Below are positions 1 to 50,251 of a DNA stretch of 64,000 bases, in pieces. Under the pieces are notes generated by a model. It searched no databases and had not been told where the DNA came from. It saw nothing but the letters and a program-made list of their open reading frames with translations. This DNA comes from Eledone cirrhosa (lineage: Eukaryota): assembly GCA_964016885.1 (NCBI GenBank), contig OZ024753.1:2294001-2358000 (forward strand), given 5' to 3'. The position numbers and the translations under genes are program-made. Numbering within the stretch: position 1 is the stretch's first letter; every line of letters begins with the position of its first letter.

Positions 1-944
1 TCTTACATAGAAAAACAATACTAAGACAATCAGAGCCCTAGTATGTTTGTCACTTCTGTTGGACACTTAAGGATGACGGGAAATCTACCCAGGCATGTAT
101 TTTGACTGTAGTTTAATAAATATGTAACTATATGTTAGTTAAAAAAACTAAATTGCATTCACACAAGAAGCTAATCAAAGACAGAAATATTTCAAACGTA
201 TTTCGATGAGCGTTAAATAAATATACTATATGAACCTAGTAACACTATTCTTGTTACAGTGAATATTTGTTTTAGTTCTCTAGTGTAATCAGTTACTATA
301 ACAGTATAGATTTATGACTAGAAAAATGTTTGTTATAACCCTGAAGAAGAGTTTAACAAACGAAATATTGCAATGTCTACACATTTACTTATTATCTAAC
401 TTAGGCGTTGTCAGAATCAGATATTCCAGCTTATACAGATTGCGTATTTATCAACTGATATCTGCAATAAATCCTTTAACTATGTAGTTATAGCAATACG
501 AATACCAACGAATGGTAAATTACATAATAACACCATAATGTATATGAATTAATTCAATATAAACGCTTAAGTTTAGTCTTGCTGAAAAGTAATTTCGTTT
601 TATATCATATTCAAAGAATACTTAAAAGTGTAAAATCCGAAAATATAGATAACGGGCAACAGAAAAATTGGATGAAACTTGACTATATCAACATTGTGAT
701 CATTCTGTTCTGAAAACTATATACCGTCTTAAGCAAGTATAATCCTCAAATTATTTTTAGAATAAATAACATAAATATTTGCATATTCACTTGATTCTTT
801 GGTGTCTAGTCAAAAAATTATATTATTCATGCGCATACTTTTTATAAATGGAACACTAGTATATTTAGCATATCTATAACAATGTGTCCCCAATCTCTAT
901 CTTATGAATAACATGCCATTAGTATAGTAAACAAATATGTTTGC

Positions 945-8480: not shown

Positions 8481-8518
8481 GCCGACAATGTTTCGTCCTA
8501 TTAAGGACTCATCAGGGC
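8481..8518 (-). ncRNA. Minimal type I hammerhead ribozyme motif
   Basis: GCC-CUGAUGA-GUCC(uuaaua)GGAC-GAA-AC(auu)GU-C-GGC; canonical GUC site. Confidence 0.88.
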
Positions 8519-18596: not shown

Positions 18597-18602
<6 letters not shown>

Positions 18603-18837
18603 TAAACAAATAATGAATAAACAATTCCTTATATTAAACAAAAAAAGTTCATTATTTAACGATCGTTTCTAGGATATATATGTGTTAGAATTGGTATGCA
18701 TATTCAACAGATCTATGTACAAAATTATACAAAATTATACAAATTATCAAGATTAAATATACATACCAACACATATATACGCCGTCTTCAGAAATACTAC
18801 CAAGAGTTTACGGTAGTAAACTCTTGGTAGATTTATC

Positions 18838-18840
<3 letters not shown>
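18597..18840 (-). mobile_element. Compact element of about 245 bp: 5' hairpin, long-stem-II hammerhead, AT-rich tail, inside (TA)n
   Basis: Hairpin ctaccaagagtttac/gtaaactcttggtag 18797-18830; homolog at 49850-49990. Confidence 0.75.
18653..18796 (-). ncRNA. Hammerhead motif with 115-nt stem II hairpin
   Basis: UAUUU-CUGAAGA-[115 nt with UAUAUAUGUGUU/AACACAUAUAUA and GGUAUGUAUAUUUAA/UUGAAUAUGCAUACC]-GAA-ACGAUCGU-U-AAAUA. Confidence 0.72.
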
Positions 18841-42620: not shown

Positions 42621-42758
42621 AAACATCGAGCACTTTACTTCAGAGAATAAAACAAAGATAATGAAATTAGGCAATTTTTTGGTCACGAAACCTTCAATTA
42701 TTCCTCTCAGAACTCCACTCTCCTGTTCTCCACTGAGAAGATCTAATTAGATCGAAAA

Positions 42759-42831
42759 ATATGGTTTACTTTCATCTGCCCCGCCCCCTCTCTTTCTCTC
42801 TCGCTCTCTCTCTCTCTGTGCGTGTATATAT

Positions 42832-42883
<52 letters not shown>

Positions 42884-42897
42884 ATGTATATATACAC

Positions 42898-42935
<38 letters not shown>

Positions 42936-42964
42936 GGGGCGGGGCAGATGAAAGTAAACCATAT
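42759..42964. repeat. Inverted duplication across a (TA)n tract
   Basis: atatggtttactttcatctgccccgcccc(ct)n mirrored by (ga)n ggggcggggcagatgaaagtaaaccatat. Confidence 0.93.
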
Positions 42965-43593
42965 ATAGATATATAGATATATGTATGTATATATGAAAAA
43001 AAAATATATATACATATATATATACGTATTATTATAGGACTTCCGCTTAATTTGAAATATTTATTTCCCTGTCTGAAGATAAATATAAATAATAGAAATG
43101 TTGTGTCTGTTACATATTAAGCTATGATAAAACATAAGAAAAAAACTCTATCTAAACTTTCGCCATCACTCTTTTGTAAACTAATCAAAATTGATTAGAT
43201 ACGTCGAACAGTCGTAAAGGTTGACCTATTCTTTGTACACTTTGATAGGTTTGTCCTATAGAATACTATAGTGTCAGACACAAACATTGCTAACGTGTTA
43301 TGAATTTATAACAGATTATATTTCCGATTTCGTTCCATAGTTTATCAGTCAATTGTCTTACAAATAATATGACCGCTGTGTGTATAATAGATTATATTTC
43401 CGATTTCCTTCCATATTTTAGTGTTACATACGAAGACCGTAGCAGATTAATGCAGATGAATCTACTTATCATATGCTTTCTATCCCACTCTGTATCTCTC
43501 TTTCGTTCTCTCTTTCTCCCTGTTTCTCTCTCTTTCCTGATCTCTCTCTTCCTCTGTTTCTCTCCCTCTTATTTTCTCTACTCAGACACAACT

Positions 43594-49513: not shown

Positions 49514-49517
<4 letters not shown>

Positions 49518-49717
49518 AACGAGTAGGACCCCGACGGCTGAGCTCAAGCCGTTTCGACGGCTAATTCTGGACGAGCCGTAATTAGAATTAGCCGTCGAAA
49601 CGGCTTGAGCTCAGCCGTCGGGGTCCTACTCGTTCCTATTACTCACTCTACTACCCTAAGTATTGAGTACTTTGGTGCGCTATGGTCCACTTAGTTCCTT
49701 ACCACATTTCCTTCGTT
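49514..49717 (+). mobile_element. Hairpin plus tail element in (TA)n
   Basis: About 55-bp perfect arms around a 15-nt loop ggacgagccgtaatt, then tail of about 78 bp; second copy at 62699. Confidence 0.92.
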
Positions 49718-49849
49718 ATATATATATATATATATTTATATATTTATATATATATATATTTATTTATTCATATATATATATATATATATATTTATATATT
49801 TATATATATATATTTATATATATTTATTTATTCATATATATATATATAC

Positions 49850-49990
49850 AGATAAATCCACCAATCTGAAGACGGCGGGTAGAGAAGGCGTATGTATATT
49901 TTCTTACTTTGATAATTTGTAATATATTTTACAAAGATCACTAATAGAATGAACATATGGAGAACTACCCTCCAGAAACGGTCGTAAAAA
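49850..49990 (+). ncRNA. Hammerhead motif with 102-nt stem II hairpin; stem I damaged
   Basis: CUGAAGA-CGGcGGGUAG...UUUGUAA/UUACAAA...CUACCCuCCA-GAA-ACGGUCGU-A; homologous to 18653-18840. Confidence 0.62.
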
Positions 49991-49992
49991 AT

Positions 49993-50175
49993 AATTGTTT
50001 ATACTTTAGGCACAAGGCCAGCAAATACCCAGTGCATTACTGGTACTTTATTTTATCGACCCCGTAAGGATGAAAGGCAAAGGCAACCACGGCGGGATTT
50101 GAACTCAGATCGTAAAGGGACGTAACTATGCTGGAAAGCATGGCGTCCGACCCTCTACCGATACTGCCAATCCAT
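49993..50175 (-). mobile_element. SINE family A, young variant A1
   Basis: Full-length copy. Confidence 0.95.
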
Positions 50176-50251
50176 AGTGAGTTTTACTACGAATTACCCG
50201 TATTTTGTTTAATTTCATTGTTTTCATTATTTGTATTATATATATATATAT

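Follow-up and report, generated by a model that had tools for sequence, protein, structure and literature searches.

A Penelope-like element of Eledone cirrhosa with a predicted hammerhead and an unusually long stem II

What is the sequence at positions 18597 to 18840 of a 64,000-nt stretch of the Eledone cirrhosa genome (contig OZ024753.1, positions 2,294,001 to 2,358,000; this whole stretch is called the window below), which an initial annotation described as a small mobile unit built around a hammerhead with a stem II hairpin of 100-115 nt? A type I hammerhead core lies on the minus strand of the locus, its two halves parted by a 115-nt hairpin insert (copy 1); the locus is composed as follows.

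18816..18840, plus strand: inverted arm, the last 25 nt of the element 3′ tail (end site +344), running outward into (TA)n; it matches the tail end of the intact terminal repeats of loci L067, L069 and L070, and that of L007, L009 and L012
18797..18815, minus strand: snap-back copy of the tail, which forms the so-called 5′ hairpin; junction private to the window locus (L001) among the loci compared
18792..18796, minus strand: 5′ arm of stem I, 5 nt remaining (7 nt from the usual start at -7)
18785..18791, minus strand: 5′ half of the core, C3 to A9, CUGAAGA
18670..18784, minus strand: stem II domain of 115 nt, with a C.A mismatch, 2 bp, a C.C mismatch and stacked helices (z of -7.3, and pair tables)
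18658..18669, minus strand: 3′ half of the core, GAAA, with the 8-nt palindromic stem III and the GUU triplet (H17 = U); predicted cut after 18658
18650..18657, minus strand: 3′ arm of stem I (paired part 18657-18653)
18597..18649, minus strand: remainder of the terminal repeat up to end site +207, followed by (TA)n

The core halves lie 115 nt apart here and 102 nt apart in a second copy of the window (copy 2), as had been claimed, and exact positions could be recovered for both. Each insert is borne out as a single long hairpin, of -40.5 kcal/mol in copy 1 (z of -7.3) and -31.0 kcal/mol in copy 2 (z of -5.3), with 0 of 300 shuffles as good in either case; z values for the whole regions are -8.6 and -3.2, respectively. 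It is equally confirmed that the basal arms are unlike in sequence yet pair in both copies. The common start GATAAATC(T/C)ACCAA is indeed present, but it is no 5′ leader: it is the 3′ tail of the element itself, read in reverse complement. Copy 1 has the two-ended inverted anatomy found in ordinary insertions of its family, and its 5′ hairpin reflects a template switch that happened once. Since this hairpin was found only at the copy 1 locus among the loci compared, copy 2 never lost it, contrary to the first description.

The window is AT-rich, with (TA)n throughout, and contains no ORF of a Penelope-like element (PLE). The hammerhead family was absent among the 150 of 265 Rfam matches listed, which were microRNA-like and lay on microsatellites. 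Two other structures were noticed in the window: a short-stem hammerhead-shaped motif of another PLE-type family, with an 11-nt stem II region (8484-8515, minus strand), and an inverted repeat of about 200 nt at 42756-42967, with G+C-richer outer arms around simple repeats, where the top Rfam matches fall below the gathering score.

Further copies exist in great number. In the 3.0 Gb genome searched (1,796 contigs), the exact pattern of both core halves separated by a gap of 93-135 nt gave 11,180 matches and its reversed control gave 0, which excludes a chance origin of the motif. The same pattern with a gap of 6-92 nt gave 265 matches (reversed control, 1), and the first 100 of these listed were mostly deletion variants, plus two other families. 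DNA searches returned 37 matches with copy 1 (30 candidates scored) and 45 with copy 2 (40 of 731 candidates scored).

Copy 1 shares 92-94% identity with the terminal repeats of elements whose 813-aa ORFs are intact (family A). It is a fragment of the terminal repeat of a Penelope-like element that is young and autonomous and has Hydra-clade motifs. The parent consists of a hammerhead-bearing terminal repeat, a 502-nt leader, the 813-aa ORF, a long repeat-rich 3′ region and a second repeat. The ORF, whose length is counted from its first Met (a codon 502 nt past the usual 5′ boundary), encodes, to judge by its motifs, a reverse transcriptase (RT) followed by a C-terminal GIY-YIG domain. The hammerhead motif lies in sense to the ORF, 440 nt upstream of full ORFs (3 loci) or downstream of them, and five tandem units spaced 6.64-6.66 kb define a unit of about 6.65 kb. 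A search with the RT region yielded 46,673 candidates, of which the 128 scored were all 96-100% identical, with many open frames near 830 codons. Homologs of the element protein number 120, at 31-48% identity; a Pfam search with a 690-aa copy gave no significant match. The leader (L070:2119-2625) contains 10 upstream ATGs, 4 before the predicted cut and 6 after, so translation may need splicing or another start.

The ORF carries RWR (a variant of RWK), SDKT, YRDD, CNCRNKANC (CxCx5C), VYKC..YIG, CRLC (CxxC) and CNH (CxH). Compared by eye with section 11 and the Fig. S7 alignment text of PMC8557442, these resemble the C-terminal GIY-YIG, RW(K/R), DKT, CxCx5C linker and CxxC/CxH of Hydra-clade EN+ PLEs, including Hydra-1_Obim, so that the assignment, which rests on motifs rather than on a tree, would place the element in that clade. 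Insertion into (TA)n, an inverted 5′-truncated partner, tandem units and extra bases flanking stem II agree with what is described there for Hydra-clade PLEs. Some features differ: the unit of about 6.65 kb exceeds their usual length of less than about 3 kb, a tendency and not a strict criterion in PMC8557442, and the two end sites are 137 nt apart here, as against a tail of 30-40 bp in those elements. ORF pieces of a second family, B, are about 57-84% identical to family A.

How do the short pieces arise? We picked 30 arms by a pattern in their 3′ part, blind to their 5′ ends, and counted positions from C3. Half of them end at +205..210 and half at +344..346, in (TA)n; these ends fall outside the long arm, about 70 and 210 nt to the 3′ side of the predicted cut. 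At the other side, 15 start at -9..-5 (10 exactly at -7) and 4 beyond -60, and none of the 30 starts at the predicted cut (+134; range +130..140). Paired arms point outward. Given these starts and ends, the short pieces are likely to be by-products of two internal RT starts on uncleaved RNA, formed when the 5′ end of the element RNA is copied. Across the genome, copies break 2,861 times at -8 and 499 times at -6; the former count is inflated, since 6 of 30 loci sampled are junctions with a SINE-like element, and others of this set show stuttered jumps at the same base.

The arrangement suggests a route in which the endonuclease would cut both strands in (TA)n, reverse transcription would begin internally at two sites, one per strand, both cDNA copies would run to the 5′ terminus of the RNA, which would coincide with the first base of stem I and probably with the transcription start, and the two copies would be joined head to head. 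In such a route cleavage by the hammerhead would not be needed for copying. A PLE of the anole behaves comparably: both strands are cut in AT-rich DNA, there are two internal RT starts, the template is uncleaved RNA and the ribozyme is assisted by protein (PMC11167929). That element, PAc (a Poseidon PLE of Anolis carolinensis), shares with ours the two RT start sites, on both strands, the AT-rich targets and the uncleaved template, but it belongs to another clade, and its ORF begins inside the ribozyme and its RT starts lie in the ORF, whereas here all of this falls in a non-coding leader. With its thousands of copies, intact ORFs and several subfamilies, this young family offers a sharp genomic record for the role of PLE hammerheads. 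The record points to an RNA 5′ end that is fixed at stem I, to equal use of the two RT starts and to RNA that is copied uncleaved.

The initial annotation had instead proposed a non-autonomous ribozyme element, that is, a separate retrozyme- or SINE-like unit borrowing PLE enzymes. Short copies without an ORF are common (26 of the 30 arms start downstream of -60), and non-autonomous PLE derivatives with hammerheads have been described (10.64898/2026.07.22.740005). Nevertheless, the identity of copy 1 to the repeats of ORF-bearing elements makes it a fragment of these and not an element of its own. Junctions vary from locus to locus, the hairpin junction of the window being unique among the loci compared, and we saw by eye a single same-strand pair less than 500 nt apart among the first 100 matches listed of the 11,180, which argues against short tandem arrays. 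The head-to-tail short monomers without a linked ORF that define retrozymes were not found for this family among those 100 matches, and we regard an independent unit as highly improbable.

The sharp 5′ boundary 7 nt ahead of the core admits another reading than a transcription start. It could be the poly(A) cut of an upstream transcript, with the hairpin protecting the downstream piece, which would then be copied; intact copies of A and B keep an AATAAA about 9 nt ahead of the boundary, and a CA on it. The two families also have an initiator-like TCATT on the boundary and a CCAAT-like box about 80 nt upstream. Moreover, G is in excess at -8 (22 of 100 listed copies; at -6, 4 of 100), as a copied cap would give, some of these G coming from the other arm. 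These features favour a start, and we judge a poly(A) cut rather unlikely. A cap-derived G at -6 had been considered too and was discarded as an artefact of the query.

Copy 2 belongs to family B and is built as follows.

49849..49864, minus strand: inverted end of the 3′ tail, the reverse complement of the family-B end in loci L042, L046 and L049
49866..49986, plus strand: hammerhead core and 102-nt stem II domain (core 49866-49872, 3′ core 49975-49986), with one change in the stem III palindrome
49996..50174, minus strand: nested insertion within the 3′ arm of stem I, bounds approximate
50175..50237, plus strand: rest of the terminal repeat to the proximal end site, then (TA)n

It is 93-95% identical to copies in family-B loci, two of which adjoin ORF fragments. 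Copy 2 had been said to have lost most of stem I; its 3′ arm is in fact disrupted, but by an insertion of about 180 nt, which is also present at that site in 3 further loci among 30 family-B loci. The inserted sequence resembles a SINE. SINE-like elements recur at the ATTATT/AATAAT of stem I, in either arm, in 8 of 30 family-B loci and in 6 of 30 loci of the set broken at -8 (L038, L039, L041, L043, L046, L048, L060, L242 and L245-L249), and microhomology with their tail is the likely cause. A near-perfect, G+C-richer inverted repeat adjoins copy 2 (window 49515-49630); it is part of another repeat, also present beside loci L017, L028 and L045.

We collected 130 motifs and parsed 126 of them (96 of family A and 30 of family B). 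The type I core (C3-A9, G12-A14, A15.1-U16.1 and H17) is present, although the search pattern fixes part of it; N7 and H17 vary among allowed bases only, H17 being U or A. Stem III is the 8-nt palindrome ACGATCGT in 122 of the 126 motifs, lying in the terminal repeat in sense to the ORF. Stem I has 5 bp in copy 1 and at least 7 bp in intact copies, with 90.5% of cells paired, and is destroyed in copy 2. The stem II domain, 99-116 nt in nearly all copies, opens with a C.A mismatch (122/126) followed by two pairs and a C.C mismatch (119/126), beyond which come helices of 6-11, 7-11, 3 and 4-7 bp. Its base beside the core is accordingly C.A, then G-Y/A-U and G-C, instead of the usual G-C. The terminal loop of stem II is not near the core; internal loops could serve a contact between stems I and II. 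GT..AG-like motifs are kept within stem II in A and B, and an intron there was considered; no GT-AG joint was found in assembled contigs, which show presence only.

Does this hammerhead cut? In both families the predicted ground state of the monomer pairs the two core halves with each other (P of 0.72-0.99). Relative to the predicted ensemble, the ribozyme fold is unfavourable by 5.4-5.9 kcal/mol with a stem I of 5-7 bp, or by 2.9 for family B when stem I has 14 bp. Given a weak stem III and this mutual pairing of the core halves, a single ribozyme is predicted to be off. Cleavage, after nt 142, would require either dimerization through the 8-nt palindrome or the aid of the element protein. 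These modelled energies fit a dimeric or protein-assisted ribozyme, and equally a dead one. If cutting did occur, the capped end would be lost together with the long hairpin, and we propose that expression would be damped as a result. The long arm would most likely be a stable scaffold or a protein-binding handle governing the cleavage switch.

Alternatively, the hammerhead may no longer cut, its structure being kept for protein binding, for protection of the RNA 5′ end or for overlapping promoter signals. The C.A at the base of stem II, the predicted pairing between core halves and the absence of arms starting at the cut site (0/30) all suit this reading, as does the low or absent unaided activity of other PLE hammerheads. 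Yet extra unpaired bases flanking stem II are common in the Hydra hammerheads of PMC8557442 (File S2), and the core, the palindrome and stem I are kept across A, B and the more distant family D, with one C-G/U-A change in stem I. The constancy of the core gives no independent test here, since search patterns partly fix it. We hold loss of cleavage to be possible but doubtful, and continue with a ribozyme that would be switched on by dimerization or protein.

The initial annotation further placed the long arm under structural selection, and signs of this are visible. In family A (93 motifs, 3 of the 96 being dropped for register errors), pair variants present in at least 5 copies, a threshold of our choosing, keep pairing in 10 of 11 cases, compared with 12 of 36 rare types (Fisher p 0.0012). 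In the basal part of stem II 95.7% of cells pair, against 26-55% in slid controls. Across 12 subfamily representatives, 4 of 7 basal pairs are changed on both sides, a count of doubly changed pairs that 17 of 500 shuffles reach; only in-register helices were counted, family B pairs 33-116 and 68-86 being left out for a MAFFT misalignment of the middle helix. The first pair is G-C, G-U or A-U depending on the subfamily, and double changes are A-U/G-C within family A and U-A/G-C and G-C/C-G between A and B. Of the 10 common variants that keep pairing, however, 7 are single A/G changes, such as could stem from editing or transition bias. The counts come from related copies with few independent events, in a sample leaning to top BLAST hits, and most double changes trace to the one split between A and B; the apical helices are invariant and for that reason uninformative. 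From these alignments, we consider that the long stem II is probably kept paired by selection.

The arm could also have arisen by fold-back copying, its covariation being mutational, through A-to-I editing or transitions copied into DNA. Fold-backs are readily made by this element family, A/G changes dominate the common pair-keeping variants, and private changes in family B comprise 11 A>G and 1 T>C (p 0.007, one of four comparisons). In contrast, family A has no A>G excess (9 against 15 T>C), true double changes of three kinds occur, the closing geometry recurs in family D, and shorter-gap variants are rare (265, which include other families, against 11,180). A purely mutational origin therefore seems improbable to us, and selection on pairing stays the preferred reading.

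Is the arm nonetheless a substrate of ADAR, as the initial annotation wondered? Heavy editing of Penelope repeats in a lizard and high editing in octopus have been reported (PMC5625713). In run X4 (88 million letters, kind of library unrecorded, another sample of the same organism) five places of the motif show A>G, at 18-40% of depth, compared with less than 0.02% in run X1; two of them are core positions, A11.1 and A15.1. Over 1 kb, A>G places number 18 in X4, 10 in X1 and 8 in X2, and T>C places 13 in all three. If X4 is RNA, as its size suggests, the pattern would fit sense-strand A-to-I editing, though alleles or expressed variant copies may account for it too. We thus have a hint from one run, set against private genomic changes that are mixed (9 to 15 in family A). 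Because editing of Penelope repeats and in octopus is already published, editing alone would be ordinary and only an effect on cleavage would be new. One may imagine that stem II was repeatedly lengthened until it became an A-to-I substrate, editing of A11.1 closing the C.A and editing of A15.1 damaging the core, so that an editing-switched ribozyme would set the output of a retroelement of more than 11,000 copies; we think such a switch quite unlikely.

A trend towards longer stems II seems to run through this genome, A and B being its extreme, since hammerhead-shaped motifs across the loci collected have inserts of 12 to 116 nt and family D, a distant relative (33-41% aa identity over the N-terminal part), shows the same closing geometry on an arm of 63 nt, whose fold is weaker (z of -2.2). 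Inserts of 13, 28 and 31 nt lie downstream of other Hydra-like ORFs, a linkage by position only. Short- and long-armed relatives within one genome would allow a direct test of the role of the arm and of the effect of editing on the ribozyme. Family D is Hydra-like, counts 2,241 candidates and has 5′ ends clustering about 31 nt before the core (L075, L182-L201, L223). Single motifs with stem II domains of 88, 48 and 50 nt belong to other families (L080:236-355, L088 near 893 and L043 near 1966). A candidate family C, matched by the long-gap pattern, was dropped because its hammerhead is of the ordinary short-stem type: it has a CCGAUGA/CUGAUGA core, an 8-bp stem II and, about 40 nt upstream, a second core half, CUGAAGA (1,802 candidates; L072, L162-L181).

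Overall, we are fairly confident that the window locus is a fragment of an abundant protein-coding PLE with Hydra motifs, likely a by-product from the 5′ end of uncleaved RNA, that bears a predicted type I hammerhead whose stem II of 99-116 nt is likely kept paired by selection. The element is of a known kind, with an unusually long, probably selected stem II that we did not find described in the literature searched. That stem II is far longer than usual, as first noted, is clear from File S2 of PMC8557442, where Hydra hammerheads have stems II of 3-7 bp with loops of 3-10 nt (7 bp and 8 nt in Hydra-1_Obim), similar flanking bases occur beside stem II in Hydra and PLE-X motifs, and the longest stem II domain of the table, about 53 nt, is that of a spike-moss PLE-X. 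With minimal PLE hammerheads (PMC4209133) ours shares type I, a short helix I, an unpaired base after A9, a palindromic helix III and a predicted dimer, as well as mostly single dispersed motifs of truncated PLEs and opposite-strand pairs 100-700 bp apart. Helices II called larger than usual in that paper have 7-8 bp; here there are about 35-45 bp in several helices, and an extra A precedes G12. No PLE hammerhead with a long stem II was found in the literature searched, and Repbase/Dfam entries and the supplements of PMC4209133, which lay outside this search, may include the family. Core-only searches in PMC8557442 used a spacer of 7-17 nt. When a descriptor restricts stem II to a short length, it can overlook a family of over 11,000 motifs, a point that matters for PLEs reported to lack hammerheads.

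Non-LTR retrozymes are akin to our copies in having type I hammerheads within short non-coding repeats related to PLE terminal repeats (PMC7229834; 10.64898/2026.07.22.740005). They form head-to-tail arrays of monomers of about 300 nt, whereas the copies described here are solitary or head to head and belong to an autonomous family. Separately, tandem arrays of short-stem hammerheads, retrozyme-like in appearance, occur with periods of 472 nt (L032:6203-7619 onward) and 310 nt (L057:2981-2051).
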